Part shown: piece by piece, positions 11,565 to 46,141 of the stretch
How the letters are laid out: every line of letters starts with the position of its first letter
Numbering within the stretch: the first letter of the stretch is position 1
NCBI GenBank assembly: GCA_002269645.1
Contig: NIVC01002567.1
Location: forward strand, 97,187 to 161,186
Direction: 5' to 3'
Source of the DNA: Macrostomum lignano
Taxonomy: Eukaryota
DNA: 64,000 nt
The notes under the pieces: generated by a model
The model's input: the letters and a program-made list of their open reading frames with translations, nothing else
Databases searched by the model: none
What the model was told of the DNA's origin: nothing
Program-made: the position numbers and the translations under genes

Positions 11565-13649
11565 TCAGCTGACCAGCTCGCACACCTGGGCGCATCTCTC
11601 CGTGTACAGATCAGCGAAGCGCCTGGCCAACTCCAGGAACGGCTGCTCAACGCCTTGGCCGTCCTTGGCGGAGGCCTCGAAGTAGGCCAGGCCGGCGGAC
11701 TGCGCCAGCTCCTGGCCTTGGCTTGGTGTCACAATGCGCCGGTTGTCCAGGTCGGACTTCAGCGCCACCAGAGCTGTGGGAATCGGCGCCAGCTGAGAAC
11801 AGGGGGAGGGGGAGTTTCTGATGCAGAAGGCCGCTGGCAAATCATGAAGTTTTCCGTCTTTCAACACTATTAAATTCTCCTCAGCATCTCACCTTGTGGA
11901 CTCCTGAATCACAAATGAAGCCATGCATTGTTTGTTCTCTCCAAGGCTTACTCAAAAGCTTATCAAGTTATTCGTTCACAAACTGCTACCCGAAGCTGAT
12001 AGGCAAAGGCAAAGGCATTTATGCACTGATTTTGATAAACATATTTTGAAAAACGCAAATTATATTACTCACAATTGTCAGTAGTGTACTATAAATTTCA
12101 TACCTTCCCTTTAATACGAGTACATGTACCTAACATAGCTTGCTGGTCGTATATCTGCCTGAATGTCTACTTCCAGTTACACCATATATACACTCCCAAT
12201 GTCTACTTCCAGTTACCTACCATGTATACTCCAAATGTCTACTTCCATTTACCTACCATGTATACTCCCAATGTCTACTTCCAACACCTACCATGTATAC
12301 TCCAAATGTCTACTTCCAACGCCTACCATGTATACTCCAAATGTCTACTTCCAACACCTACCATGTATACTCCAAATGTCTACTTCCAACACCTACCATG
12401 TATACTCCAAATGTCTACTTCCAAGTTGCCTACCATGTATACTCCAAATGTCTACTTCCAGTTACCTACCATGTATACTCCAAATGTCTACTTCCAACAC
12501 CTACCATGTATACTCCAAATGTCTACAAATGTTAAGGTATTTTAGAAGTAGTTTTTCAAAATTTATGGTATACTATTGATATTGGTGAATAATATTGCTG
12601 TGTAGTGAGTAAAATATTGCAAATATTGGATTAGTTAAGCAGTACATGTTTATAGATTATTTTCTTAGCGTATTTTCCTCATATTTCTACTGTCAGTAGA
12701 GTATCAAATAAAAGTCCTGCATAATTTAGACTAGCTATTTTTGTTGCACGCTGTATATTAATTTGTAGATTTGTCAGATTTTTATATGCGGTTATTTCGC
12801 GACGGTCCAGGCAGGTATCGCGTACAGAAAATAAATATATCGGAGCTGTCCATAGCTCCACTTACCTTTCTTCACAAATGCAACACAGTTTCCCAAAAGC
12901 GGCACTGAAACGCGTGCTAAGCAGAGACAGCTAGGAACAGATGGAATTTAGCTGGAACTCTGCCTGTCCCGCCGGTCTCTCTCCGATAGCATTTCATGAA
13001 CGAATATAGCGATCGATAAACTTAAGTGATCAAATAAGTAACTGCATGGAGATTAAATTACTATATATGAAGAAATTCTGTATACAATTCAGCCCACTTC
13101 CTGTGATTTTGTTTGTGTTCTCAGAAGTATCATATCCACCACAAAGCAGCTATTATTAGCATTTATCATGCACTATTCTAGCAATTCGCTTACCACCTGC
13201 TGCTGCTGCTGCTGCGGCTTTGATGGCTTCATCTGCCGGCTGCCTCTGCCTCTCTCTACCAGCCTCTGCAGTTTGCCCAGCCAGTGACGGCATTTTTCAA
13301 AGGACGCCTCGCTGGTGACGTCATAGGTCAGCACGCACAGGTCGGGTCCCTCCGCGTGGCCCTCCACCGCGTCGGCGTAGACCTCCTGGCCGGCGCAGTC
13401 ATAGATGTGCAGCTCGACCTGCACCTGCTGCTGCTGCTGCATCTGTAGCTGATGCTGCTCAGTGACCCGACTGCTCAGCGGTGCTGCCGCTGGCGGAGTG
13501 ACCGCTTTCACTAGAAGCTCCACGCCCAGCGTCATGTTGTAGTTCTTGGGAAAGTGCTGCCCATCGGAATGGAAAGTCTGCACCAGGGCGCTCTTGCCCG
13601 CGGCCGCGTCTCCCAGCACAATTGTCTTTGCGCGAAGCAGCAGAGGCAT
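11565..13649 (-). CDS. IFT27: Intraflagellar transport protein 27 (Rab-like 4); exons 13649-13194 and 11792-11565
   Basis: MPLLLRAKTIVLGDAAAGKSALVQTFHSDGQHFPKNYNMTLGVELLVK...VELHIYDCAGQE...YDVTSEASFEKCRHWL...YFEASAKDGQGVEQPFLELARRFADLY aligns with human IFT27 ([36 protein letters not shown]...). Donor GTAAG at 13193 and acceptor ttctcag at 11793 are both phase 0. Confidence 0.93.
12160..12530. repeat. ~35-bp minisatellite in the IFT27 intron
   Basis: tactccaaatgtctacttccaacacctaccatgta-type units. Confidence 0.9.
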
Positions 13650-13951
13650 GCTTCTCTGCGGTGTTGAATTTCTTCTTTCCCTGGCAACCAGATCCGGCCT
13701 AGCTGCAGCCTGGGTCCACCTGTCCTCCTTTATGGGATGATTTTTACAGCAGCCGCAAACCCATTGTCTATACTCTGCAATTGTTCCTAACTTGCTGGCG
13801 TTGCTTCTCCTCCCTTCTCTTCTGCCAGTGCTCTCTCGCATTCAAGTCCAGCGCGGCAGTGAGTGTACATTCAATCCAGCATGAGTATGTTTTGAGTACC
13901 GCTTCTCATGCACCTGCAGCATAGCAACAGTTGAGCATATGGGTGTATTTG

Positions 13952-15416: not shown

Positions 15417-15980
15417 TCACACCCGCTGGAAGGCCAGCTGGCCTGTGCTTCTCTCGATATAGTCCAGCTCCCGCTTCATCTGGCACAGAGCGCAGGGCAG
15501 CGAGCAGCTGCTCGTTACGCAGCAGTCGTCGATGGCTCCGCCCGAGATGCCGTGGGCGGCGCGCAGTTTGGTGCGGTAGACCAGAGGCGCTGAGTGGCCG
15601 CACAGCGACAGGCAGAACGGGGCGCAGCAGCTCTCGCCCATTCTCGGCGACAGGCTGCAGCACAAGAAGCAGGGGGTGCACCAGGTGACCAGGCAGCAGG
15701 AGCTCATGTCCTCGCAGCAGCCGCAGAGACTCGTCGACCAGGTGCGCAGCTGGCGCGGCTGGTTAGTCACCACGTTGCCCAGGTTGACCATCACGTGGGT
15801 GCCGCCGCCACTGCCGCCACTTCTGTCCATGTTGACTGACGGCTGGTTGTAACCCACTCGGTAGGGATCCATGCCGGATGCCGTTGGCTGCTGCTGAGTC
15901 ACCCAGTGCTGCTGCTGCTGCTGCTGGTCCTCGTCTTGGTCATACTTTGGCGGCGGAGCGGTCGGTTCGTAGCGAGCCAT
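15417..15980 (-). CDS. PLAC8/cornifelin-family Cys-rich protein, paralogue A (187 aa)
   Basis: WSTSLCGCCEDMSSCCLVTWCTPCFLC...GESCC...YRTKLRAAHGISGGAIDDCCV...CALCQMKREL is the canonical PLAC8 domain. The N-terminus is Q/P-rich. Confidence 0.92.
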   Translation of the reverse strand: MARYEPTAPPPKYDQDEDQQQQQQHWVTQQQPTASGMDPYRVGYNQPSVNMDRSGGSGGGTHVMVNLGNVVTNQPRQLRTWSTSLCGCCEDMSSCCLVTWCTPCFLCCSLSPRMGESCCAPFCLSLCGHSAPLVYRTKLRAAHGISGGAIDDCCVTSSCSLPCALCQMKRELDYIERSTGQLAFQRV

Positions 15981-16034
15981 GCTGCTTTCGGAGCTGCTGG
16001 GGCCGGGCGCGAAAAGGGGGACAGTGCTTTAACT

Positions 16035-16500: not shown

Positions 16501-17985
16501 TGTTGTCTGTCTGCACTTGCCTAATAATTGTTGAATAAGTGAATACTAGACACAATCGAGAAGGAAATCCTACACAAACTTAAAAGGTGTCCGAGATCCA
16601 GGCAGGATTCACTGACTCACTTTGCTGCGGTTCAATAATCAGTTCAGTTAAGTTCAGTTCGGACCAGTTGTGCATTTTAATAGCTTCTTCAAACATTTAT
16701 TCTAATTCGCAACAATCTCTATACTTTAGCTAACATGTATAGCAGTCTAGGACTCTGGCTCTGCAGTTTTTGTGAATTCGAATTTCCAAGAAATACGAGT
16801 GTTTCCAAGAAATGCGAATGCACACTGACTGACTAAGAGGTAACTGCAGTGTAGACACAAACAATTACAGATATGATATCTATCGAATGAATCAATGCCG
16901 TTGGCTCAAGGCTGACGTTGGCTATAGTATTATAATCATACGGTGTTTATAACGGCATGCCTTAGTTTTACGACCTGAGATAACAGAAACAGAAAATATA
17001 AGATGAATTAGTTTTTAAATAGTTTTTTCTTGAAAGTCCAAGTCCAGGTCTCTCTATATCGCCTATAGGAGTAGATCATATGCGAAAAGAGAGGATTACA
17101 AAAATGAAGAGATCACATCACATCTTACCTTCTTTGACTTTAGTTTATAACTTTAACTTGGCTTGACTGGTGGAACAAGTCCGGTAGCTAAATTTCCTGG
17201 AAATTGTGCTGGCTTGGCAGTCATTCCCCCTCAAGTTCCTCCAATATAAAGGCTGGTTCTCCGTCGTTCGCAAATGTACATACTCCCCACCCCACCCCCG
17301 CCCCAAATAAAGATAAGTGAGGGCCGCCAATGTACATTGCAAATGCCCACGGACAAAGGCGGGCCCCGTTTTTTAAAGTTTTAATGTTACTAATAAACTT
17401 TTATATACGAGCGTACTTATTATAGCTTGTTTTCTTGGCTGAAGTATATTATATTATAAAATAAATTAGAATAAGATGTCTGCGTAAGTTGTAGGGGAAG
17501 GTTTCACAAACCCGAATTTTCGCAATGTTGAAAGTTGTCTATAAACTTGGTCTGGCCACGTTAAAGCGAGCGTTAAATTGTCAACCCCAGCCTGTATATG
17601 GACATTCAATGTTATCCTGCCGAGTGCGTTACTGTGGGCCATAGAGAGTGTGTGAATGCGGTTGCGGCCATAGACAAAAAGAGTAACTATGTTTTATCAT
17701 AGAACTTAAACATAGAGACTGAATATATTATGACTGGAGGTAGTGTACGAGCTATACGACAATAACAAACCAAGCAATATAGAAAAAGAGTAATAGCACA
17801 ATTGCGGCAGTGTGCGTAGCATAATTAATTCCCTTTAAAGATTATATAGATATAGATAATGAACCTGTAGTACTTATAAAAATGGCTGGCTGAAAGGCTA
17901 TTGGCTATATTTTAAGGCTTATCACAATTCCCAAATAGTGCGCGACATACCCTAGATAGATAGCAACCCTTCGCTTCAACCTGCA

Positions 17986-18900
17986 TAGGGATTCCAAAAT
18001 CCCGACATTTTACAATCCCGGGATTGAATAGTCCCGAAATCCCGATGCTGTTGAAATCCCGGGATTCAAAATCCCGGAATCCCGGTGCTTTTGCAATCCC
18101 GGGATTAAAAATCCCGGGATTCGATTCCCAAAAAAATCCCGGGATTCAAATCCCGGATTTTTGGCCCCAATCCCGGGATCCCGGGATCCCGGGATTGGAA
18201 TCCTAAGACGGACTGTGCGGCGTGCCGCGTGCAGTAGTCATGGTCTCGCGACTCTCAGAGTCTCAGGGCCTTTTCATATTACCAATTCCAGAACCAGAAT
18301 CGGTTCGGAATTCCAAGAAAAACAGCAGTATAACTATTAAACTCTGTTAATATTTGACTGCCTTAACAGCCTCACTTTGCACGATTTTTCACTTTCTTCT
18401 TGGCGACTGTCATTCAATGATAAAAACTTTATAGCACGTATCTCCCTCTAGTTATGGAGACAAAAAGTTTATACTTCACAAATTGGTTCTGGTTCTGGAA
18501 CCAGAACAAGCACTATGAAAAGGCCCTCAGTCTCGTCTCGTGGTGGAAAACGAAAAAAAGTTAAAATTATCTATCATTTACAGTTCACATTAACAATTTT
18601 TAGCTCAATTAGGACAGGAGCTTTGCAAAATGTTTAACGTTTCATTGAGAAACAGCAAAAACAAATAAATGTTTTATTATTCAAATAAACGTTTAGACTT
18701 TAAATTATCTAACTTAGGCATTGAAAGGTTGTTCTAATCCCGGACCAATCCCGGGATTAAGGCCTTGAAACCCCGGGATCCCGATCCCGGACTTTTGCAA
18801 TCCCGGGATTAGAAATCCCGGGATTCGATTCCCAAAAAAATCCCGGGATTCAAATCCCGGATTTTTGGCCCCAATCCCGGGATCCCGGGATTGGAATCCC
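17986..18900. mobile_element. Non-autonomous hAT-like element with ATCCCGGGAT palindrome arrays at both ends
   Basis: Left end TAGGGATTCCAA and right end TTGGAATCCC. The 8-bp direct repeat AACCTGCA flanks it at 17978-17985 and 18901-18908. An extra right-TIR copy (TTGGAATCCTA) ends at 18205. Confidence 0.65.
18266..18526. mobile_element. PIF/Harbinger-type MITE (261 bp) nested in the hAT-like element
   Basis: Perfect 13-bp TIRs GGGCCTTTTCATA and TATGAAAAGGCCC, with a 3-bp TSD TCA on both sides (18263-18265, 18527-18529). Confidence 0.82.
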
Positions 18901-19479
18901 AACCTGCAACCTTGTCCAACCAACCAGCCAACGAACTAGTAGCTACTGCTAATATTAAAACCAACACTATACTACTAGTCTAATAAACGCTAGGAATATG
19001 TTATAACAATGGGTGTAAACAATAAGAAAGAGGGAGAGAACGAGCGACGATGCACAAACAGCACAACAACGCGCGCAATATGAGGCGCAGATTCATTGTA
19101 ATTATGAGATGAAAATATTGAAAAATATTGGGGCCTATATATAAAGGAGAGATGAGAAAGTTACAACAAAAAGAGCATTATCTAGATTTCACAATTACCA
19201 ATTAATTAGTTATGTTAATAGCTACTTATTAATTAATTAATTTACCTCAAGAAACGCTCTAATTTTGCGACGTAAATCTTGTCTTAATTTTCTTTTGTGT
19301 AGTGTATAAAAACTCCAATTTTTTCTTTTCGTCTGTGATCTGGTCCCACATATTGTGACTTAAAAATGAGCCCCCATTTTGTGCTAGCTCTGTTCTGTAT
19401 ACATAGAGCGTTTCAATAGGTTCAATTTTATAATAATATTTTTATCGTTTATGGTCAAAGTTATCAATCAATTAAGTTC

Positions 19480-21020
19480 TTACTGATGTCGAGCTGATGT
19501 CGAGCAACAAAAACCTCGACGATCTAGATGATGGCGATGGGGACATCTGCTCGATGCAGCTGGATGCCATGATTGTTGCCTGCCGACGCCGCCGCTTCTG
19601 ATCCGCATAGGTTGTCGCCTGCGAAAGCGAAAGAAACGTCGACGCTGCACCGCTTTCATCTGGCCTGTCAACAACAATAGCGAGCTGCTGATCATCGACG
19701 GCGGCGGCGGCGGCGGCGGCAGCGGCGGCTTCATCCTCCGCCGAGATAGACTTTTGTGGCAGCGGCCTTCGACGACGTCTACTACCGGAAGGTGGCTGCT
19801 GACGATGCTCAGATTGCTTTTTTTGTTGTTGTTGTTGTTGTTGTTGTTGTTTTTGTTGTCTAGATATAGAACTGGCTTCAGCAGCAGCATCAGCGGCGCC
19901 GCGGCGGCGGTACGTCCAGCCACCAGAGCAGCAATCGTCGCCTGCATATTGGTCTTATTGGACAACATAGAGTCCGTGGCATAATGCCTAAACAGCATGG
20001 CCTCCGACGTCTCCATCAGGCTGGCTAGTGATCTTGTCAGCACAGGATGACTGGCGGTCAAGATGGTCGTTTTGGAGCTGCGGAACACTGTCGGCCCTAC
20101 GCCTCTGCGATTTAACAGGCGGGCAGCGTGCGATTCCACCGCGTGGCTGTATGTGCTGACTGACATCTTCTTGCCAGCACGCGTACAAAATACAAACGGA
20201 GATGCGGCGGCGGCAGCGGCGAATGCAGACGAAGAAGCAGCGGCTGTCAGCGAATAGCGCCATGACCGCAGCAACTCAAAGAATGCAGTTGGCACGATTG
20301 TCCATCCGGTAGACACTGTCGGGTTGAATGTAATCCCAGCGCAGTCCAATCCATGGCCGAATGCGTTGCGGATGCTGCATAGTCGCATGCATGACCAATC
20401 TGTTGCGCCCGCTGCTGTTGCTGCTTGGCGCGAGCAGATCAACGCAGTCAGCTAGGACAATGCGCCATTCGCCATCAGTTAGCCGCTTCTTGCGCTTTTT
20501 AGCGTGATGCTCCGGTGCGTCGAGCTTGTAGCGAAAGTCGTGCGTCTGACGCAGTGTGCGCATTCGTTTCGAAAACATGGCGCACCGCTCGCTCAGCACG
20601 ACAGTCAGCTCGATCGGCAGCTGCATCCAACCGCCCATGTAGTGGCGATGTTTGCCGGGATCATACTCGACGAACATTTCAATAAATTTCATGCACTTTA
20701 TCAGCGCCTCGGAACGGTTGCGCACAGTCCCGCTGCTCGTACTGGTGCGCGACAGCTCGGCGGCAGCCTCCGACGGCTCGGCCAGACAATACTCAAAGTC
20801 GCGCCGATGGTGAAGCTGACGCGCTCGAGAGATGTTGGCCTGCAGGTTGTCAGCGTCGAGATCGACAGCGGCCGCCGCCACAGTTTCAGCATATGCCACC
20901 GACGCAATTTTGTCAAACAGGAACACTAACAGGCGCAGCAGGGCGTCCAGCGCATCGCAGTAGCCGTCAATATCGGGATCACGGATGCCGGTGGATGGGT
21001 ACCAGTAAAGATACTCTATC
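19480..21020 (-). pseudogene. Tyrosine recombinase (phage-integrase fold), split by a frameshift/deletion near 20300
   Basis: ORF 20276-20926 has SSGTVRNRSEALIKCMKF (core-binding-like), KRLTDGEWRIVL and box I RNRLVMHATMQHPQRIRPWIGLRWDYI (cf. RDRAIL.LL..TGLR.SEL..LRW.DI). ORF 19480-20442 has IVPTAFFELLRSW...PFVFCTRAGKKMS, box II GPTVFRSSKTT and LASLMETSEAMLFRHY (putative catalytic Tyr at 19981-19983). Confidence 0.78.
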
Positions 21021-21485
21021 GCCTGTTGTCGCCGCAGTAAGCCGACAGCACGGGGGATGCCCGTTTGACTCGGGGAAGCGGCGGCGGCGGCGGCGGCGGC
21101 AGCGGGATAGCGGATAATGCAGGCGTAGCCGCCGCCAAAGCCGAAGGCGCAGGTGGAGCCGCTGACTGAGGCGCAGGTGGAGCCAATGATGAAGCTGCTG
21201 CCAGCGCAGGCCGAGCCGCCTCCGGTGCCATGTCCTCAACAGCCGCTGCCGCCGGTGTGCCAGTCGACAATAACAGACGGGCATGCTTCTTGGCGTGCTT
21301 CGCAGCATCCCTGTACCACATAGCACGCTCCGCGAAATATTTCTCGGCGCGATCAGAGCGCGTCGCGGCCGCTTCTTCGGCTGGGCGAAGGATCAGGCGC
21401 CGCCAGTGCCACGTCGTCGCCAGGGGTTAGCGAAATGGGCGGCAACGCCTCCTCGCTGTTTCCGGACGCACGGAGCCCCCTGCAG

Positions 21486-21731
21486 CTAAGTCAAGTCAAA
21501 GAAGTGCCACGTCGTTCGCTGCAGCGGCGTCCAGGTGGCCACACTACTCGCCACCGTGCCTGCAGATGAATTAATTGATGCATCCTGGCACCAGACGGCA
21601 TGCTTGGCGAAAAAGTGCCGCTTTAGAGTGTCGACTCGAGGCGTCGCGTAATTACAACCTTCGATTGGACAGGGCCTGGCCGTCGGCTTAGCAGATTTCT
21701 GCTGCTTCGGAACCGTGCTGACCGACGCCAC
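21486..21731 (-). CDS. Short C2H2 zinc-finger ORF (GTG start), possibly the decayed N-terminus of the recombinase gene
   Basis: CPIEGCNYATPRVDTLKRHFFAKH has C-x4-C-x12-H-x4-H spacing. Confidence 0.55.
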   Translation of the reverse strand: MASVSTVPKQQKSAKPTARPCPIEGCNYATPRVDTLKRHFFAKHAVWCQDASINSSAGTVASSVATWTPLQRTTWHFFDLT

Positions 21732-21829
21732 CGCAGAGATGCCTGAGCACGCGTGAGAGAGATATATATTGCGCTCTTATACAGCGAATAATAATTAAAA
21801 GCGTGACCATAAACAAAACAAAAATTTCA

Positions 21830-22677
21830 AGACAGATATAACGCACCAGGAACGGCACATGGCCCGCATATATGATACTGCCGACCCATTTGCTCTGCAC
21901 ATGGGCCTTGTGCTTTGCGTTTATGACAAATCTATCCCTATTCATGAGCAGCAGAAGCTGCCCCTTGCCGCCTGTGCCGGCTGCAGTTCATCAAAGAATA
22001 GGCACTGTGTATGCCTAATTTTAATCCGTCGAACGGAAAGGCTTCGGAGAGTCTGGCGCGTAGACAGTCTCTCGGCCGAAATGTAAGCCGACCATCGCCG
22101 ACTTGCCCACTCCACTGGGGCCCCACAAAAAAATTATTGTTGGAACAGCCAGTCCTTGTCGCATGGCTGTGCAAATTTCACGCTGTATTGCACAGGCGCC
22201 ACCAAGCGACAGTCTCTGTGTGTCGTTGTTGCTACGCGACGCCGCATTTGATGTTGTCGTCGACGCCACGACAGCTGGAAATTGGCAGACGCCGCACATG
22301 CTTGGCCGTACCAGATTGGCCGGCATGGGGCTGATGCCTAGCTCCTCCACCCGGATGCGGCGCATCATTTGGACAGAGCTGAAATAGTCCAGCGTCTGTC
22401 TAAGCAACAACGGATGGCCGCACACTAGCTGCGGATCGTCGGGCCTCGGCTGCATGCAGCCCAAAGGGTGGGACATGGCCCACCGATACAACAACACATT
22501 CCTGGACAGGCAGCCGTCGTCAATGTCCGTGACGGCTGCTGTCGGGTCGTTAAGTGTCACGCGGCGTATCTCCGCGTGTGCACTCTGTACACTCCCGATC
22601 TCAGCATTTGTCCACCCTTTAGCGGCGAACGCGTCCTCCCTGGGCCCCGACGCAAACAGCCTATCAGATCTACTGTG
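21830..22677 (-). pseudogene. Superfamily 3 helicase resembling the C-terminus of CRESS-DNA virus Rep, frameshifted
   Basis: Walker A IIFLWGPSGVGKS (22099-22122) is followed, across three successive frame changes, by PFDGLKLGIH, Walker B CLFFDEL (21984-22001) and LLLLMNRDRFVINAKHKAHVQSKWVGSIIYAGH. This parallels the Rep pattern WFDGY / VFDDF / LL.L.DRYP..V..KG / I.ITSN. Confidence 0.68.
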
Positions 22678-22679
22678 CT

Positions 22680-23244
22680 ATGTAGAAATTGCACAACACT
22701 GAACTTTCTCAAACCTGAAATTAACGTCCACAGGGGACATAAGAAGGACTGGAAACTGTCCCCTATCGAAAATTCGACAATCGCTATCGGCGATGAAAGT
22801 CTCTCTGAGCCCGGGCAAGCGCACCCAGATGTACAAATTGAGATTTTTCCAAATCTACGCGCTGAGAACTTAATCAAGGTGCTGCGTGAGCAGTTGAAGA
22901 ACCCTAGCTCAGCTGTCAAAGTGGTCATTCTCTTCCCTTGTGGTCATGACCTGTCGAGACAATTTGAAGGTTTCCAATTTCCAACAACAATCGTGAATCA
23001 TTGTCGCAAGGCCTTTCCAGAGACAAACATCTACACACTTGACTCAGTGGTGGATGTCGAGGCAACGGACAGCGTCCGAAGCAACGTGGACAAATTGAAC
23101 CGCCATGCGCGGAATCTCAACCAGCAGGGGCACGTGTCACTACCCAGACAGGGTTTGACCTTCCTGTCAGACAAGGTTACACTATCTGACCAATCGGCCT
23201 TGGAGGTCTTCAGGATTGTCTATGGCAAAGTGCAAAAAGACTAG
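22680..23244 (+). pseudogene. SGNH-hydrolase-like upstream ORF of the Penelope-like element
   Basis: HRGHKKDWKLS...TIAIGDESL...DVQIEIFPNLRAENL...VKVVILFPCGHD resembles the IIGDSNL...QIDSFPGA...KVILS.G.N pattern of retroelement SGNH domains. Confidence 0.6.
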
Positions 23245-23256
23245 TAGGTTTTAGGA

Positions 23257-24840
23257 ATGCGGCCAGCAGCCAAGTCAAATTTATCAAATTATCGTCTCTC
23301 TGAATGCAAAACCGAAATTTTAGGAATGGGGAAGAACTTTGTGCCAGCCCCAATTATTATGGGGTCCAGCGTCCTTTCTGACTCCATCAAGGTTTTCAAG
23401 CAGAGAATAGTGCTTAACTTCCTGCTTCAGCGTCGCACGTGTGCTTTCACCCCGCGCACCCCTTTTACTGGCCGAGCTTCAATCCCCAACATCAACTTGG
23501 ACAAGTGGCGCTCTCACAGAGACCTTTTTGAAAGCCTAGACAAGATCAGAATTCCAAGAATCATACACAACAAGCCAAACCTTCAGGAGCAGCAGAGAAT
23601 GGCACTGAAGATTCTTCGAGACAAAAGCAGTATCGTCATTAAACCTGCCGACAAGGGCAGCAATATGGTCGTTATGAATCGAACTGATTACATACTGGAA
23701 GCTAACAGACAGCTCTCCAACAGGACCTTCTACCAACCCCTAGACACTGCAATGAGCGCCCAGACCAGTGCCATTATCAAAGCCATTTTTCAAGATCTTA
23801 AAGAAGAAAAGATAATTACTAATCATCAATACTCGCAACTGATTCCACCGTCTATTCCTAGAGATCGAATTTTTTTACCTCTTGCCAAAAATTCACAAGG
23901 ATCCCGAAGAATGGCCTACTCCTGGAGTGCCTCCTGGGAGACCCATTGTCTCAGTCTGCAGCTCGGAAAGCTACATGAGCGCCAAATTTATCGATCTCTT
24001 TCTACAGCCGATCGCTATGGAATAAGACTCCTTCATCCGAGACACGGACCACTTTCAAGCGGCTATCAATGATTTGATTTTTGAAAAAGACGAAAATGTA
24101 TTTCTGGTTACAATGGATGTTGAATCCCTGTACACCAATATACCCACTGATAAGGGGATGGATGCCATTAGAGATGCCTTTCAAAAATTTCCCCAAACCT
24201 CAAGGACAGATAATCATCTTCTTGCGCTCCTGGATATTAACTTGAACAAAAATGATTTTGTTTTTAACGACACGCGCTATCTTCAAGTCAAAGGCACAAG
24301 CATGGGAAAGTCATTTGCGCCATCCTACGCCACCATCTTTATGTCTGCCTGGCAATCCAAAGCTTTAGAAGCTGCTCCGTTTACCCCTCGTTCTTCAAGC
24401 GCTACATTGACGAAATTTTTATGGTTTTCGTCGGCACTGAAGTCGAACTAAAGGAGATGCACAGGCATCTGAATGAGTTCGATAGCAACACCCGACTCAA
24501 GATGCAATACAGCAGAGAAAAGGTTCACTTCCTGGACTGTTGTGTCAGTCTGGCTGACGGAGGGAGGCAACAGCAACAAGAGACTTTCGTGCTCAATCTA
24601 CTTCAAACCCACCGATTCACGCCAGCTCTTACATCCGGGATCTTTTCACTCAAAGCACACATTCAAAGGTATACTGAAATCTCAGTTCCTCCGTTACGCT
24701 CGCCGTTGCACATTTAAAGAAGACTTCGATGAGGCCAGCAGCAGCTTAACAAGCATCCTGAAGAATCAAGGATATTCTGTCCGCTTAATCAGGGATGCCA
24801 AGAAATCTGCTCTCATCCAGCTAGGCTTCTACATTGATGG
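23257..24840 (+). pseudogene. Penelope-type reverse transcriptase (disrupted)
   Basis: NLSNYRLSECKTEILGMGKNFVP; IVIKPADKGSNMVVMNRTDYILEANRQLS; (FY)LLPKIHK...PPGRPIVS; LVTMDVESLYTNIP; YLQVKGTSMGKSFAPSYATIFM; RYIDE at 24400-24414 instead of YIDD; VHFLD; YFKPTD. Confidence 0.92.
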
Positions 24841-24843
24841 TCG

Positions 24844-25290
24844 GTGGGAGTTCGGCTTCCAGGATTGTGGCAATCTAAGCTGCCGTCCTTGCAGAGAGCA
24901 CGGGCCTTTGGCCAAGTTTGTTTAGGGTCCAGCGCTACAAATATGATTTACAAAATTTGTCAAAAAGTCCGCAGGAATGTGGTGTATGCCATTCTGTGCA
25001 AGACTTGCAATGACCGCTGTATCTACGTAGGTGAGACTGGAGGCGCTCTTAAAGTCAGACTTCAGGCTCACCTGAGCGACATCAGACTGGCTAAGGACAC
25101 CCCAATCTCCAGGCACTTTCGGTCACCAAACCACAATATTCAGGACCTCCGCTTTATGGGTCTGTGGTACCTCAGTACTGAGTGCCTGGCCACTAAAGAG
25201 GGCGCTCAACGCAGGCGGAGGAATATGGAGCAGAAGCTCATCGCTTTACTATAGACTCAGACTCCAGCAGGCATAAACACCGTCATCACT
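24844..25290 (+). pseudogene. GIY-YIG endonuclease of the Penelope-like element
   Basis: C..C..C knuckle (CGNLSCRPC), NVVYAILCKTC...IYVGETG...RLQAHLSDI...PISRHF...E.KLIALL*TQTPAGIN. Confidence 0.9.
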
Positions 25291-26245
25291 GAAAAAAGAC
25301 GCCTGCATCCCAATAGTGATCCCTTTCACGGACCACTCTGGGCGAGTTGTTCATCAAATTCGCACGTCCATTTCAAACCACGCTGCAGAGCTGGACACGG
25401 CGGCCGTCTATTCTCGCTCACGCTCATTAAAGGACATTCTATGTCCATCCAATCTGCCCGCCGTAACTAATGGTCGATCCCAAAACTCAAACCTCTTTTC
25501 AGATGAGCACTAGATGTACAGGTGTACACATGCGTTGCAACGTGCCCGCCTAACCATATTGATCATTTTTTTACACGTGGTTTTTGTACTCACTGTTGAA
25601 ATGAACAAGTCATGAGCTGAGAGTTTGCGAGACAAGACGAAAGTGCCAAGTGCACCGACAACCAACGATACGATTTATTACAAGCGAGGGTCAATAGTAG
25701 CCACCCCCACCCCAGGGCTAAAACACCAACAATGTACATTAAAATCACGATAGAGCAGAGACGTGCAAAGAGCGTGAGCCACGGACCATGAGTACACGCA
25801 CAGAGTTAAGAACACAAACAATACACGGAGTAAAAGCGCACCCCAACCCCACGCACCAGGCCCAACACTCACTATAAATAGTGAGTTAAATTTATAATTT
25901 ACTAATTTACTAATTTACAAATTTTACTTAAAGTTAAAGGTGAATCGGAATATCTGATAATGAAAAACTCAAGGCAGGCAGATAGGGCGATCCCGCAGAG
26001 AAAATGAGTAATCAATGTCTTGTTTTCCTATGGAGTATTAAATATATACAGAGCTAATAATGAAAAATTAATCGACCATTTTTAGCGAGAAAACGTTTGC
26101 TGATTAAGCATTTGAAAAATTGGTTTTGATTAAAAGATCCTACTAAAAGTAGAGCGAATGGCATGGACAGATAAAGTATCAGAAATTCAATCAATAACTC
26201 GTCGATAAGCGAGACCCGATCCCGAAATTTTCCGAAGGCTCTCCT

Positions 26246-26776
26246 TCAACGGTGCCGCGCGAACGCCGGCTTTCCGGTGGTTTGCTCGATGAAGTCCAGC
26301 TCCCGCTTCATCTGGCACACGGAGCAGGCCATACAGCAGCCGGTGGTCACGCAGCAGTCCTCGATGGCGCCGCCTCGGATGCCGTGGGCGGCTCGCAGTT
26401 TGGTGCGGTAGACCAGCGAAGCCGACTGACCGGACAGCGACAGGCAGAACGGAGCGCAGCAGCTCTCGCCGAACCTGTGCGACAGGCAGCAGCACATGTA
26501 GCAGGGGCAGCACCAGTACACCAGGCAGCAGGATTCGAAGTCGTCAAAACAGCCGCAGACGCTTGACGACCAGTTGCGCAGTCCATCGGCAGATTGGCCT
26601 ACGTACAGCTGCTGGGAGACGACCGTCATTTGGTAACCGGCACTCCCTGCTGACTGCTCATAACCAACCCTGTAGGGGTCGCTGCCGGCTCCCGGCATCG
26701 GCTGCTGCTGCTGCACCTGCTGTGGCTGCTTCTGGATAACTCCATCTTCCTGCGGCGGCTGGGCGGCTTCGGCCAT
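26246..26776 (-). CDS. PLAC8/cornifelin-family protein, paralogue B
   Basis: ATG at 26776 (MAEAAQPPQ). WSSSVCGCFDDFESCCLVYWCCPCYMCCCLSHRFGESCC...YRTKLRAAHGIRGGAIEDCC...CQMKREL. Confidence 0.92.
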   Translation of the reverse strand: MAEAAQPPQEDGVIQKQPQQVQQQQPMPGAGSDPYRVGYEQSAGSAGYQMTVVSQQLYVGQSADGLRNWSSSVCGCFDDFESCCLVYWCCPCYMCCCLSHRFGESCCAPFCLSLSGQSASLVYRTKLRAAHGIRGGAIEDCCVTTGCCMACSVCQMKRELDFIEQTTGKPAFARHR

Positions 26777-26861
26777 TGTGGTTCTTGACACGGTGGGTCG
26801 GGCTGGGGGCTGCAGTTGCGATCGCTTCAGTGGCTCTGGAGATAGATTGATGGATAGATTA

Positions 26862-29231: not shown

Positions 29232-32200
29232 TCACCCCGACGCCCGGCCCCCAAGGCCGCCGTTCAGAACCGCCGTGGCCTGTCGGAACGCTGTGCTCAG
29301 TTTGGCCGCTGCCGACTTAGTTGCAAACCGGCGGCCTGCCGTCAGCGCCTGCGACAGTTGGGGAAAGCACCGGCTGACCCCGGTCGGCCCCGAGCCCATC
29401 AGCAAGTTGCCACCGCCTCCGTCGTCCTGGAAACTCCGACTCAGCAGGCCGAGCTGCTCGTTGAGCTCAGAGACGCCGGTGTCCAGCCGACTGTTCGACA
29501 TTCGGGCCGCGAAGTTGCGCAACGCGTCGGAAAATTTTTGCACAGCGTCGCGCAGCGACTCGGTCGCCAAACCGGCCAGACGCAGCCGGCCAGCCGCCCA
29601 GTTGTGGCAGGCGGTGGCTGCCCGAGCCAGCGATTCGCAGTCGTAGGGCAGCAGAGGCGCGTCCGACAGGCGCAGCAGGGCGTCGACGGTGAGTCGGGCT
29701 AGCGAGACGGTTGCTGCGTCAACGGAGTCACCGGGTGCTTTTGTGGCACCGCCGGGGTCGGCCACCTGCATATCGGAGTTTGAGTGTAAAATTTGTTTAT
29801 GAGAATATGGGCACTTGATAAAAGTACTTGAATACTTCATAAGTGCAGTTGCACTTTATACGTATGCTCGTACTTTAGGTTGTTTTTATAGAACTCCGTA
29901 GCAACGAAATATGAATTTTTTTGTGCAAAGTATGGAACAGAGTTTATCCGTCGGCTAACTATTTTCGGGAATATTTTGATTCTATAAAGTGCAGTAAGTA
30001 CTTTTAGCGTATGGGAGTGCACTCGGTACTCACAAGTTCAGGCTCGGCCGTGGGAATTCCCCAGTTGAAGGCGAATTCCGATTGGCTGCCGATGCTGCTG
30101 GGGAATGGCAATCTAAAAGTGGGAATAGGGAGCCGCGTGAATGATGAAAAATGTGTGAATGATGAAAAGTGAGTGAATGGTAGCAAAGTGAGTGAATGGT
30201 AGAAAAGTGAGTGAATGGTAGAAAAGTGAGTGAATGGTAGAAAAGTGAGTGAATGGTAGCAAAGTGAGTGAACGGTAGAAAAGTGAGTGAACGGCAGATA
30301 AAAAAAGTGAGTGAATGGTAGAAAAGTGAGTGAATGGTAGAAAAGTGAGTGAATGGTAGAAAAGTGAGTGAACGGTAGAAAAGTGAGTGAACGGCAGATA
30401 AAAAAGTGAGTGAATGGTAGAAAAGTGAGTGAACGGTAGAAAAGTGAGTGAACGGCAGATAAAAAAGTGATTGAATGGTAGAAAAGTGAGTGAACGGTAG
30501 AAAAGTGAGTGAACGGCAGATAAAAAAAGTGAGTGAATGGTAGAAAAGTGAGTGAACGGTAGAAAAGTGAGTGAACGGCAGATAAAAAAAGTGAGTGAAT
30601 GGTAGAAAAGTGAGTGAACGGTAGAAAAGTGAGTGAACGGTAGAAAAGTGAGTGAACGGCAGGTAGAAATGTGACCGAATGGCAAGGTAGAAAAGTGAGT
30701 GAATCATAGAATAGTGAATGAATGACAGCAAGTGATGATCTACGACGTATGAGCTTGTGAACACACCCATATTCCCCCATCAGCTTACTATTGACAGTTC
30801 ATTAATTCACTCACAGCGGCGGCTGTCCAGCAGCCGTGGCCTCGGACTCGACTGTCTCCGGCCAACCCGTCCCGTCCGCCTTCCCAGCCGATGGGGTGGC
30901 ATTCGCCGCGAACGTCGCCGCCGAATAGAACACGGAGTTGAGCAGCGGCGAGGCCCGCAGTCGCAGCCGTCGCGGGCCCTTCAAAGCCGGGACGGCCCTG
31001 TCCAGCGCCACGTAGGCTGCCACCCGAGGCTGCGGAATTCCGCGCCACCGACTCCGGGGCCCCCGGCGTCGTCGCCCCAGAAGGCCAGCACAATGCTCCT
31101 CTGGTTGCGGCTGTGGCGGCGCCGTTTCAACAGCGCTTGGGCGATGGCGCGGAGAATTCCGGCGGACGAAGGCGGAGCGCCGGCCATGGAGTAGCGCAGC
31201 GGCTGCTGACGGCCGCGCAGCACCAGGAACTGGTCGGTGACGCGGCGAAGCTCCAGGCGGCTCGGCTGCGAGATGGACAGGCGGCTGCGGGACGTCAAAG
31301 GCAGTGAGATGGAGGGCCGTGCAAACGACCTACGGGTAAGGACGTTGATCCGTGGTCTTCTGAACCGAATGACCAGCAGGTGAGGGGTGGTTGGCCATCA
31401 CCATTGGGCAAATGGAACTCATCCTACTGTCGCGCGAAAGTCCCTGGGCTCGCCGATGAGGGCCAACCCCAAGGGGTGTGTGTTGAGAAAAATCAGGGCG
31501 GCTGTACACCTTGTGACGGCCCTCCGGACCGTCGACCACATGTGTCTGCATCAGCTCTGGCTTTGTTGGTCCCTGGCCTTCGAAACTGTTATTCTAGTTT
31601 TGTGGATCAAGTATTGACAGTGGGCAGTCAGGTTGATGACGGAATGCTTGAGAGACTGAGGATGGCCAGCAGTTGAGGCTTGCCCGCTGTCGAGGTTTGA
31701 TCAGCGAAACTCGAGAAATTCGCAACAGGATTGTCCACAGTCACCTGGTGCCACCTGTTGAAGGTCCAGAAGCTCCGCCTGGGTGAAGGCTAGTGATGCA
31801 GACACATGTGGTCGACGTGCTGATGAAATTTGGAGGATTGGCAAGGCTGCACTGAGGCGCAGCGTTGATTGGTGCACAGGGGTGTACATATTAAATACAC
31901 CAGCGCTTATGGGAAAAATCCAACCTTCTGGCAGAATTGTTGGATATCTCGAAGGTCCGGAGAACTGGCGACTTGATTCTTGTTTGAGAAGGTGCGCAAC
32001 AAAAAGGTGTGTTCTTGAATTTCGTGTGCCTGCGTTGCTCCCTTCCGGCGCAGCAAGAAAATTATCAAGGGGGAAAATGGCTTGGCATTCCTACTGATAA
32101 TCGGAGAAAAGAAGCAAGGTTAGCATGCCGCACTACTGATTGAGTAGAAAGTCATGCGTAAGTCGCTATTTTCATCAAAATCGCCGTCTTCTAATCGGCT

Positions 32201-35200
32201 TTTGAGATTGAATTTTAATTTGGACTTTTCTCCTCGCCAAAAAAATCCCAGAGGCGCCCAAATCACCGATAGGGAAAATTTTTAATCGGCGGGATTTCCT
32301 GACTTTGATGCGACTTCGGCCACACCCTGTGCTTTGCGAGACGGGATCATAGGTTGCATGGCCAAGAAGACTCATTCACTACTAATCCCCTTTACTTAGA
32401 AATTGGCTTTTTTGGTCACAATATGACTGCCTATACATTCGCATTGTCCCATGCTGCTCTGAGCTTGTCGAGAGCTTATGCAGCCCAAAAAAGTACATCG
32501 ATCGGATCCGCTGGCTCGAACACAGCTCCCCCCCCCCCGGCTCAAGCCCTCCCGGCCCCCTCCCCGACCCCTTATCAAGCGCCATCGCTGCGTGCCAGCA
32601 GCTGGGGCTGCTGCTGCTAAACTGCCATATCGGATTTCCTGACCCCCAAGCCCCTGCATAGCAACTGATCTTCCTCTCCTCTCTGCTGCTCTCTTCCCCC
32701 TGTCTCCTTTCTCTCATGCCTCTCAATACGGCACGCGTTTTATCTATTTATCTGTCTGCCTGTCTGCCTGTCTATCCGCATGTCTCTAAGCAGGCTGCAC
32801 TGGGCTGCATAGCCAGACCCTCTGCTTCGATATTCGAGCCCTGGCGTGTTGCTGCCGCAGAAATGAGCCACAGGAAAAACTGGCGCGAAGAGCCGCCAGG
32901 AATCGATCCGTATTGATTGCAGCATCTCACTGATGTTGAACTGATGCTGGAGTTTGGGGTGAAGCCTACTGGCACTGGGCAGTGCTGTGTGTAAATTCAC
33001 GCACTTTGTTTGAAGAGTTGGTGCCTTTTTGTTTGACTGCCTGCAGTGTCCGGTTCTTGGCTTGTGTTTGCTTTGAGGGACCCATCCGATACAGAACTGC
33101 CATTGCTGCGTTTTTCCTCTCCCTCTACCCTCCTCTCTCCCTCTACCCTCCTCTCTCCCTCTAACCTCCTCTCTCCCTCTTCTCTCCTCTCTCCCTCTAC
33201 CCTCTTCACTCCCTCTACCCTCCTCTCTCCCTCTACCCTCCTCTCTCCCTCTACCCTCCTCTCTCCCTCTACCCTCTTCTCTTCCTCTACCCTCTTCTCT
33301 CCCTCTACCCTCTACCCTCCTCTCTTCCTCTACCCTCCTCTCTCCCTCTACCCTCCCCTCTCCCTCTACCCTCCTCTCTCCCTCTACCCTCCTCTCTCCC
33401 TCTACCCTCCTCTCTCCCTCTACCCTCCTCTCTCCCTCTACCCTCCTCTCTCCCTCTACCCTCCTCTCTCCCTCTACCCTCTTCTCTCCCTCTACCCTCT
33501 ACCCTCCTCTCTTCCTCTACCCTCTTCTCTTCCTCTACCATCCTCCCTCCCTCTACCCTCTACCCTCCTCTCTTCCTCTACCCTTCTGTCTCCCTCTATC
33601 CTCCTCTCTCCCTCTACCCTCCTCTCTCCCTCTACCCTCCTCTCTCCCTCTACCCTCCTCTCTCCCTCTACCCTCCTCTCTCCCTCTACCCTCCTCTCTT
33701 CCTCTACCCTCCTCTCTCCCTCTACCCTCCTCTCTTCCTCTACCCTCCTCTCTTCCTCTACCCTCCTCTCTCCCTCTACCCTCCTCTCTTCCTCTACCCT
33801 CCTCGCTCCCTCTACCCTCCTCTCTTCCTCTACCCTCCTCTCTCCCTCTACCCTCCTCTCTTCCTCTACCCTCCTCTCTTCCTCTACCCTCCTCTCTCTC
33901 TACCTCTCCCCCTTTCTCTCCCTCTACTCCTTCACTCGAGTTACACTATACATGCATATTTATATCTATCTGGACGAGTGACCCATGTAGCTGATCAGAA
34001 ATGTGATCCCCAATCAGTTAGTTGACCGATCAAATACAAAGCATACCATAACCGGAAGCAAGACTCTTTGTACTTTTTGGCTGTGGACAGATTTGAATAA
34101 ATACAGCAAGAAGTAAGCCCCGGCAGGGTGCCAAGTTGGCAGGCCGTTCTGCATCCGCCATCTCCTTCCCTTACCTCTTGTCCTATTCTCTGTTCAGTCA
34201 TCTTCAATCATTGAAGGTGGCCCTTGACTAACAAAGTTTTTTTTCTTGGAAAAAAGCCAAATCCCTGCGCTTCAGCGCATACGGGAGGAGGCAGGGCGAG
34301 AGGAGAGAGAGGGAGGGGGAGAGGTGAGCCAATAAACACTGGCTGACCATCTGTCATTTAGGCTGGCAATATTTTTGTGGGAAAAAAGCGTGACTGGGAA
34401 GCCCTTCGTGACCACTTCCCATGGGCTCCAAATCCCTTCTGTCCCCGCCTCCTCTCCTTCGCTTCAAAACCTTTTAAGTCGCCACCTGCATCAGGCAGAG
34501 TTGAGGCGGAAGAAGCGTGTAACCCTAACCCTAACCCTAACCCTAACCCTAACCCTAACCCTAACCCAACTTCTGTAAGTCAAGAACAGAATGGCGTGCT
34601 CTGAACTGAAAAAAACGTTTTATACATCAAATACTCTCACAGAAGATATCAAAGACTCTCACAGAAGACATCAAAGACTCTCACAGAAGACATCAAAGAC
34701 TCGCACAGAAGACATCAAAGACTCTCACAGAAGACATCAAAGACTCTCACAGAAGAAATCAAAGGGCCGTATGTATAAAGCCTAGTCCAGACTAGCTAGT
34801 CCGGGCTTGGGTAGTTCAGTCTATAGTCTATGGTCTAGCTACCCTAGTTCTGTCTATAGTAGACCGGTCTAACTTTGCGTTTCTGCATACCAAATCCAAG
34901 TCCAGACTAGCTTTTCAAGACCGGACTACCCTAGACAGAGCTTTCTGCATACGGCCCAAAGACTCTCACAGAAGACATCAAGGACTCTCCTAGTAGATAG
35001 CAAAGACTCTCACAGTAAACATCAGAGACAATCGATATCAATATCTCCAAACCTACTTTAATGTATTAAATAGGAATTATGAGAATGCAATTATTAATCC
35101 CATTGATATAAATGCACTCATAAAATCCGGCGCACTCGAACTTATTCTCGGTAAAGAGGGCCAGCTTCAATCCAAGTGCCAGGAATGCAAGGCGAGTGCT

Positions 35201-36821
35201 TTCTGATTAAAAGAGGAGCCTCATAGAGGAGGAGGGGAGGAGAGAGGATGCAGCAGCTCAGGAGGGAAGCTGAGCCGAGGTAAGGGTGTGGGAAGCGAGA
35301 TGGGCCGAGCAGGAGACTCAGCAGGCGTAAGAAATCTCCATTTCCCCTTTGCTAACTTCCTCTCCCTCCAGAATCCCCGAGCCGGATCCGCTGCATCACC
35401 AGTTGAGCGGCGAGCCTCATTACTCAAAAACTGCTCAGGCACCGCCACTGCAGCTGGTCCGCGCTGCAGGGGGGGGGAGAGATTAGCGCGGAGGTTGAGC
35501 AGGCAAAAAACAATTTATCAGTTCCCTGCAGGAGGCTGACTGATTTCTATGGGGTTGTAAATAAAGTTTGAAGCTAGTCCAGGATCCCATGGAGAGCGGA
35601 AGGCAGGACTCACGGCTGACACTGATTTATTGCCGTGCAGCTCAGCCGGGCGAAGTTTTATTGGTTTATTGCTTTTTAAAACGGAATTGAAAATGGATAC
35701 TCCCTCACCTCTCCTCTCCCTCCCTCTCCTCTCCCTCACCTCTCCTCTCCCTCCCTCTCCTCTCCTCCCTCTCCTCTCCCTCACCTCTCCTCTCCTCCCT
35801 CTCCTCTCCCTCCTCTCCTCTTTCTCACCTCTCCTCTCCCTCCCTCTCCTCTTTCTCACCTCTCCTCTCCCTCCCTCTCCTCTCCCTCACCTCTCCTCTC
35901 CCTCCCTCTCCTCTCCCTCACCTCTCCTCTCCCTCCCTCTCCTCTCCCTCACCTCTCCTCTCCCTTACCTCTCCTCTCCCTCACCTTTTTTCTCCCTCCC
36001 CGCTCCTCTCCCCCACCTCTTCTCTCCCTCCCTGCTCTCTTCCATGTACCTCATTAACAGCCGTCTGGTTTCACTTTCTCTCAGTCATTAATAATTTAAA
36101 CTCGCTTATTTCCAATCCAGCTGCCCTATTCTAGCAGTCCCTGGCTACAACCGCATCGAGCGTCGACTCACGGTCCCAGCTCGTCCGACGGCCCCAGAAA
36201 CTCGTGCGGCCTGCAATTCCAGCTGGCCGGACACTCAGGCAGGCTGACGTTGCCCTTGACTGCCGAGAATTCCACAAACAGGGCTCGAACCCGGGACTTA
36301 TCGGCTATGGCTGCCGTGGGTAGAACTTCGGTAGCCGCCGCTGCCGCGGCGACCTCCGCGGAGTCGCCGAGAAACACCAAGCCGACAGCCTGGCAGAGCC
36401 GAGCCCGCCTGGCCACCTTGAAGGCGCCACCGCCGCCGCCATCAACCCGAGCCATCAGCACTAGCCCGGAGCAGTCGGGCAGGCCGCTCACCCTCAGCAA
36501 GTCGGCGAAGTCCCGCTCACTGCCGAAATTCGCGTAGGCAACTCTACCGAGCGACTTCGATTCGCCGCAGGCGGCCGCCGCCGTCACCCGCAGGCTGGCA
36601 TTGCGGCCCAGGCCAGCCGCCGTCTCCCGAGTGGCCTCGACGAGCCAAGCGTCGTTGGCGTCTCCGGCAGCGAGCATCGCCCGCAGCTGACTGCCAACGA
36701 AATCTTTGGCCAGCAGCTCTTGCTGGGTTGGATCTCTGATCTCACCGATCCCAGAGAGAATCTCCGAGCTCCAGCTCGAACTGTAGTCCAGAGCGCTGTC
36801 TGAGGCTTCGGGTTGCTGCTG
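29232..36821 (-). CDS. M28 NAALADase/PSMA/transferrin-receptor-like protein (probably NAALADL2-like, non-catalytic); exons 36821-36172, 31284-30815, 30112-30034, 29765-29232; 5' exon(s) not identified; one internal frameshift
   Basis: PA domain [12 protein letters not shown]; M28 region RSIVLAFWG...GGAEF / [11 protein letters not shown]...LRASPLL; [16 protein letters not shown] (cf. LGSGSDF...GIPS); dimerisation domain [13 protein letters not shown]...[12 protein letters not shown]...FPQLSQA. Splice phases 2-2-0 are compatible, but exon 31284-30815 is 470 nt and so out of frame near 31030. Confidence 0.8.
30135..30725. repeat. ~19-bp minisatellite in an intron
   Basis: gtagaaaagtgagtgaatg-type units. 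Confidence 0.92.
33110..33935. repeat. 18-bp CT-rich minisatellite
   Basis: (ccctctaccctcctctct)n. Confidence 0.92.
34520..34567 (-). repeat. Interstitial telomeric repeat (TTAGGG)8
   Basis: Eight consecutive TAACCC units on the plus strand. Confidence 0.92.
34633..35020. repeat. ~23-bp minisatellite interrupted by a MITE
   Basis: aagacatcaaagactctcacaga-type units on both sides of 34764-34957. Confidence 0.85.
34764..34957. mobile_element. Harbinger-like MITE (194 bp)
   Basis: TIRs GGGCCGTATGTATAAAGC and GCTTTCTGCATACGGCCC (16/18 match), with a 3-bp TSD AAA duplicating the host repeat unit atcAAAgactc. Confidence 0.8.
35700..36045. repeat. CT-rich low-complexity repeat
   Basis: ctcacctctcctctccctccctctcct-type units. 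Confidence 0.88.
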
Positions 36822-45730: not shown

Positions 45731-46141
45731 CGCCTACCCTCATGCCACAAGTCCTAAGTATATTTATTGTACTAGGCCATAAAATATATACTTCTATGTT
45801 CTATCCCAAAGCAACAAACTCAAAGCCATGATGAAAAAATCACCCCCAATATACTCAAGTTTCAATCAAAACCAAACCGCAAGCACCCCTAAAAACTCCA
45901 GGACACCCCAGGACTGGCTATGCTGCCAGTGGCTACTGCCAGCGTTCCAGAACACCGTCCTTGGTCCTGTCGCCGCAGTCCACTCGGTCGGTGTCCGTAG
46001 CCGAGTTCGTGACTATTTCACCGAGGCTGTGCCGCACGCCAGCGGCCAGGAATGCCTGCCTGACAAGTGCGGCAGATGCGAAGCGGCAGGAGCTAGAGCT
46101 GGCCCAGGTGCTGGTCAAGCTGCTACGAATCTTGGGAAGCG

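Follow-up and report, generated by a model that had tools for sequence, protein, structure and literature searches.

What gene once encoded the helicase whose motifs lie scattered over several reading frames in a 64,000-nucleotide stretch of the Macrostomum lignano genome? The stretch, hereafter the window (G000:C2567:97187-161186; contig NIVC01002567.1), comes from an assembly of 764 Mb in 5269 contigs and is rich in minisatellites and animal genes (PLAC8, Rab and a G-protein-coupled receptor (GPCR)). We find that the frameshifted helicase is a real gene remnant of superfamily 3 (SF3), of the type found in the replication proteins (Reps) of DNA viruses of the CRESS (circular Rep-encoding single-stranded) kind. 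It belongs to an ~8-kb, multi-copy, two-gene DNA element family of M. lignano, and the window holds a dead, decayed copy. The element is probably a DNA transposon that integrates by a tyrosine recombinase (YR) and carries a disarmed Rep helicase, by which its excised circle is likely amplified in the manner of papovaviruses.

The Rep remnant, corresponding to exon 2 of the family, occupies 21853..22686 on the minus strand; it is cut upstream by a Penelope-like retroelement and downstream by a deletion, with both junctions found in short-read contigs of 4/4 runs. Its SF3 motifs (Walker A, B′, Walker B and C; 21853..22135, minus strand) lie in three frames joined by three −1 changes, at ~22051, ~22006 and ~21960. 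In the sister copy C3789, 94% identical to the remnant by BLAST (30 mismatches over 831 aligned bases), the helicase frame is open and has one additional base at each of these sites. A profile built from 68 related Reps gave the window helicase, with an X placed at each break, 62.0 bits, a value that is partly circular because the members were chosen by helicase similarity; the single-frame helicase scored 39.3 bits against the same profile, and 1000 shuffles reached at most 5.3 bits. A preliminary description of the window, made from its letters alone, had stitched a CRESS-type helicase from four reading frames by three −1 changes. The stitching stands, across three frames, and profile, alignment and relatives agree on the type.

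Read evidence differs among the three breaks, which that description had proposed to check against raw reads. The break at ~21960 is bridged without differences in 3/4 runs (two samples), and the same contigs bridge ~22006 marginally, their shorter arm covering only ~30 bases. Contigs of 4/4 runs carry the extra base at 22051, so this break is unproven and could come from misassembly or from the collapse of a sister copy. The early end of the helicase at 21853 marks a deletion of the arginine-finger segment, which sister copies keep; its junction is spanned without differences by contigs of 4/4 runs. At the other end, a frameshifted Penelope-like retroelement (22690..25900, plus strand, distal end approximate; RVT_1 E 0.0015, GIY-YIG E 0.00024) took the place of the element's 5′ half. 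Its junction at ~22690 is likewise spanned without differences in 4/4 runs, and alignments to other copies gave no match between window and element sequence beyond 22686. The open frame of ~185 codons upstream of Walker A is thus no natural N terminus: the retroelement cuts it, and it has also lost 13 bases near 22659. A host ATPase origin was rejected: no Pfam family exceeded its cut-off in the window pieces and the best library relatives are Reps. A word-based homologue search with the Rep returned nothing, and PDB sequence searches gave weak AAA+ matches only.

What, then, precedes the helicase? The preliminary description had reported no HUH nuclease upstream. The catalytic residues are indeed absent, but the domain itself is there. 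The upstream 180 residues of the window scored 12.6 bits (E 5e-6, one sequence) against a profile of active Rep nuclease and oligomerisation domains, made from only the pre-helicase part of the 68 Reps with HUH and YxxK; 1000 shuffles reached at most 3.2 bits and the other two frames gave −2.4 and −3.1. In the family alignment, both His residues of the HUH strand and the Tyr and Lys of the YITKxD helix are lost. Thr and Asp are retained, as is the oligomerisation domain's Ser/Trp/DP pattern, and catalytic HUH and YxxK are absent from every aligned member. The window preserves the back half of the dead HUH domain, the oligomerisation domain and a CxxC motif (22276..22668, minus strand; assigned from the 68-Rep profile, alignment and codon-position divergence), with Tyr and Lys replaced and Thr and Asp kept in the motif III helix. 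Motif I and the HUH strands were physically removed with the Penelope insertion, which is why no HUH domain was found there.

The N-terminal domain of the Rep is therefore the HUH domain itself, catalytically disarmed, and the suggestion of a different origin-binding or primase domain is not supported; a primase fusion was rejected on the alignment, profile match and fold search of the N-terminal domain. Between the window and the C1024 copy, divergence across the dead domain is 0.24, 0.15 and 0.64 at codon positions 1, 2 and 3. The domain is under purifying selection: throughout it, third positions diverge far above second positions, in the window copy too, so that it has been kept folded while non-catalytic. 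Subfamilies 1 and 2 have a conserved phase-1 intron that interrupts the HUH domain. A Foldseek comparison of the N-domain with viral models gave no match at E 0.001, and the whole-Rep structure model was poor (predicted local distance difference test score 47.7), making fold searches with it uninformative.

Rep queries gave 50 and 57 genome matches and YR-like queries 50 and 42, and one member is present in the protein library as M. lignano PAA62424. The element consists of an acidic N-terminal exon, the Rep, and then a gene combining a zinc finger with a YR-like domain; this second gene is in tandem with the Rep in subfamily 1, convergent in subfamily 2, and upstream and more loosely placed in subfamily 3, which also has acidic open reading frames (ORFs) of no assigned function. 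Rep is thus linked to YR in three subfamilies, and a family YR lies within 10 kb at 20 of the 43 Rep loci (chance 0.14% each). In the C3789 copy, the predicted Rep intron is joined out in contigs of 1/4 runs presumed to be RNA, and a GT-AG joint is present in the second gene in 2/4.

Ends and insertion sites are sharp. Two 8.1-kb copies in unrelated flanks, C957 and C1267, match each other at 98% along 8.2 kb, and their targets are repeats with empty counterparts (C570, and 6/6 copies examined). Between empty and filled sites the flanks join directly, with only GC or GGC (2–3 bp) common to both junctions, and the targets resemble the end-to-end junction of the element. The element lacks terminal inverted repeats, and all three copies inspected have short tandem repeats close to their ends. 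In the window, similarity among copies stops at ~17535; this distal non-coding end (17535..19480, minus strand) has 11 genome matches, most of which stop at the same place with different flanks. It is interrupted by a later insertion of ATCCCGGG-rich tandem repeats (17967..18899, no strand assigned), which leaves a gap in alignments to C3789, C1567, C709 and C4730; among the sister copies, only the duplicate locus C666 has this insertion. That locus (C666:189000-200000) duplicates the window locus at 95–99% identity and lacks window positions 20250–24730, the Rep remnant included.

Long ORFs of two full-length copies are accounted for by the Rep and zinc-finger/YR genes, and none of the 7 element ORF pieces scanned matched a capsid family in Pfam. 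The C957:88538-95900 copy is embedded in a Polinton-like region that also contains a double-jelly-roll gene (PF21738, E 2e-4), which is outside the element ends and also present at the empty site (C570:322400-328900). We therefore rejected this gene as an element part, as we did a UCH gene at C3789, also outside the ends. DUF3504-type Cryptons, in a genome with at least 103 PF00589 matches, stand next to or inside several copies (C491, C283, C150 and C1024); their YRs differ between copies and are outside the shared span or nested, and are not element parts.

The second gene is very probably a tyrosine recombinase. In the window it has an N-terminal C2H2-like zinc-finger segment (21489..21776, minus strand; PF24757, E 0.05, the same segment being found in sister copies), followed, 600 bp downstream of the helicase, by a broken YR-like gene (19483..21235, minus strand) that has frame breaks and, compared with the C709 copy, has lost ~86 bases near 20290. 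Across subfamilies, at 24–34% identity, the residues R, HK, R and Y keep the order and spacing of YRs. One member matched PF00589 over residues 20–167 of 172 (E 0.0076), and a member also weakly matched a PHROG integrase (E 0.01) and XerC/D (E 0.05–0.07); the junction structure adds support to the assignment. Searches of phages and plasmids by tblastn were not significant, the longest plasmid match (E 4) being to an annotated integrase. Subfamily-3 YR genes at C228, C4612, C2093, C230, C135 and C4144 are 88–97% alike, have long open frames and are Rep-free in the match lists, and possibly form a YR-only family.

Relatives of the Rep were sought with a profile of 19 family sequences, which gave 221 matches at E 0.001 among 1.84 billion proteins. 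HUH and YxxK are present in 68 of the 93 full-length relatives, which were selected through the helicase. A few of the relatives match Gemini_AL1, DUF5906, RNA_helicase or PPV_E1_C, the last of which matched none of the 19 family members. The nearest Reps belong to an HUH-active group that includes a protein from the Popillia japonica genome. This large group (library proteins P0012-P0152) has weak or no Pfam nuclease matches and lies on 2–17 kb contigs; the beetle protein has a long acidic N terminus, and the group could be a separate family of elements in animal genomes.

In a quick helicase tree of 119 rows, from which the C84 row was dropped, in which three rows were under half filled and which held no papillomavirus E1 or polyomavirus large T sequences, one branch (SH-aLRT 97) unites six helicases of the element with seven fragments from outside it (JGI, ENA and Logan). 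P0005, the sole one of the seven that covers the nuclease region, is of the dead type. Nine further outside fragments span just the N-domain and have no YxxK; several of them break off as at an intron boundary. The helicase tree and N-domain similarity indicate different groups of active Reps as the sister group. A metagenome scan for outside relatives gave one chance match, in a prenyltransferase-like ORF. Viral scans with active Reps recovered two distant contigs carrying Rep and capsid, and weak searches found no dead-HUH relatives in viral contigs. In the viral contig L140, two diverged units lie head to tail, and both have a 550-residue Rep and two capsid-like ORFs.

How would such an element move? 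The transposon interpretation rests on the multi-copy family, Rep–YR linkage, sharp ends, two precise insertions, loss of the catalytic residues in a domain under purifying selection, introns and splicing in a sister copy. The YR would join the two element ends into an excised circle, and the disarmed Rep would bind the short tandem repeats near the ends, which resemble iterons. The Rep would then unwind the circle for host polymerases to copy as double-stranded DNA without nicking, as papillomavirus E1 and polyomavirus large T do, and the YR would insert circles at sites like the circle junction. Because a recombinase makes nicking unnecessary, its presence is a suggested cause for the loss of HUH catalysis. 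We regard as about evenly balanced the broader proposition that these elements form a self-amplifying group of eukaryotic transposons, spread beyond the flatworm, in which a CRESS Rep was independently made into a papovavirus-like non-nicking helicase after a YR had taken over cutting and joining.

Several observations weigh against this interpretation. No circle or replication intermediate was observed. All YR matches are below cut-off, with one member per scan; the canonical His positions of YRs are not kept; PDB and protein-database homologue searches with the YR-like protein returned nothing; and profile comparison with host Crypton YRs (DUF3504-type) was no better than shuffles, 14/120 of which reached the score. 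In the structure search with the N-domain, HUH folds tied with ordinary ferredoxin-like folds. No YR lies within 25 kb at 21/43 Rep loci, mostly of subfamily 3 and fragments, and 29/55 YR loci lack Rep; all these counts include duplicated segments, so the loci are not independent. Clean filled and empty pairs come from one subfamily only: the subfamily-2 copy C283 yielded none, and the left junction of C2240 has AA instead of GC. An unexplained direct duplication of 130 bp (126152-126283 and 137061-137190) flanks the C1024 copy, with a 7–8 bp inverted repeat immediately within it. All spliced contigs are from a single study, whose presumed RNA runs cover introns too, and none of the listed holders of the sequences is recorded as RNA.

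The incomplete linkage could mean that the element is a Crypton-like YR transposon in which the disarmed Rep is an accessory helicase for excision, integration or target access, with no replication of a circle. Cryptons move by YR alone, some with extra genes (PMC3212892, main text), YR-only derivatives with intact ends exist (C4730 and C2956:52-55k), and the many Rep-free YR loci and low copy number per subfamily fit this account. We nevertheless consider it unlikely: the layout of origin binding, oligomerisation and helicase is wholly kept, under purifying selection and in three deep subfamilies, short tandem repeats lie near the element ends, and the YR-only copies may be ordinary deletion derivatives. 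It is very unlikely that the second gene encodes another integrase or a DNA-binding protein and that mobility uses different chemistry. Such a gene would explain the lack of any significant family, structure or homologue match, but the best meaningful weak match is to YRs in four libraries, the R-K-R-Y order and spacing persist at low identity, and the junctions show neither terminal inverted repeats nor long duplications.

The viral character of the Rep raises a further alternative, an integrated genome or segment of an undescribed small double-stranded DNA virus, or else a satellite that a helper, for example a Polinton, packages; the capsid gene would be too diverged for recognition, carried by another segment or lost. 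A dead HUH domain joined to SF3 is the papovavirus layout (PMC6668415, in the text available), one copy sits in the Polinton-like region with the double-jelly-roll gene, and subfamily 3 has acidic ORFs with no assigned function. Yet the capsid scan was empty, two genes explain the long ORFs of the two full-length copies, the jelly-roll gene is beyond the element ends and also present at the empty site, and the weak searches of viral contigs gave no dead-HUH relative; we judge this alternative improbable. An endogenous viral element with a divergent N terminus, as first proposed, is thus right for the CRESS-derived Rep and does not describe the whole, a discrete element that is multi-copy, bears introns and has a YR-like gene, and in which no capsid was detected.

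Among known systems, the predicted YR-integrating transposon resembles Cryptons in its YR-type gene, the lack of terminal inverted repeats, the short junction overlap and the proposed circular intermediate (PMC3212892, main text). It differs in its overlap (2–3 bp versus 4–6 bp), in having a Rep where Cryptons encode no helicase (the word occurs 0 times in that main text), and in a YR without detectable similarity to the DUF3504-type host Crypton YRs compared. The definition of Cryptons by YR as the only core gene does not cover an element with Rep linked in three subfamilies. With the Reps that CRESS DNA viruses encode the element Rep shares collinear HUH, oligomerisation and SF3 domains; unlike them, it has lost HUH and YxxK and has spliceosomal introns, CxxC motifs and a YR partner, with no capsid detected. 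An inactivated HUH domain fused to an SF3 helicase also characterises papillomavirus E1 and polyomavirus large T (PMC6668415, in the text available). The element Rep is far nearer in sequence to active CRESS-type Reps, so its inactivation was likely independent of theirs, and the element is integrative, with no capsid detected.

Polinton-like viruses and virophages likewise combine a YR and an SF3 helicase in one element, and have double-jelly-roll capsids, a packaging ATPase and primase-linked helicases. By contrast, the 8-kb copies hold two genes, and no pPolB or primase-helicase, double-jelly-roll capsid or packaging ATPase was seen within their ends. Replitrons and Helitrons are eukaryotic transposons with Rep-derived proteins, but theirs is an active HUH transposase; as far as the available text of PMC10288648 goes, Replitrons have no helicase, Helitrons have SF1B and neither has a YR, in contrast to the SF3 helicase and YR-like gene here. 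The geminivirus-like transposon of Tuber and the planarian PEVE/PIVE also place a viral Rep in a repeated element, PIVE in a flatworm. The Tuber element has transposases and 37-bp terminal inverted repeats and PIVE is parvovirus NS1-like, and the descriptions in the available part of PMC3198968, by which alone they were compared, mention no YR.

Elsewhere in the window, the element and the Penelope lie between two PLAC8-family genes (15420-16028 and 26246-26830, minus strand) that are 80% alike, and a 15-bp minisatellite in an open frame precedes one of these genes. The minus strand also carries a Gag-like ORF (1-492), a Rab-family GTPase (11568-13841) and transferrin-receptor-like exons (29235-36821), and the plus strand a GPCR (46097-47938).

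Few mechanistic groups of DNA transposons are distinguished in eukaryotes, and a YR integrase with a disarmed viral Rep helicase matches none of those known in the literature searched. The window copy probably marks a new group of DNA transposons. The pairing is not described in the literature as available to us (including PMC11071296 and PMC13465315), a search that did not extend to Repbase, Dfam, subscription papers or supplements, so that the element may already have a database entry. Polyomaviruses and papillomaviruses, too, have lost HUH catalysis, and the driving forces there are called obscure (PMC6668415, in the text available). In this family a residue-by-residue alignment of the disarmed Rep with its active relatives is possible and a cause can be suggested, which makes the catalytic switch testable in a laboratory animal. 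If the proposed mechanism is true, these elements would be a living parallel to the switch from single-stranded to double-stranded DNA behind papillomaviruses and polyomaviruses. The window copy also shows that remnants in animal genomes that look like a helicase without HUH can be parts of transposons.
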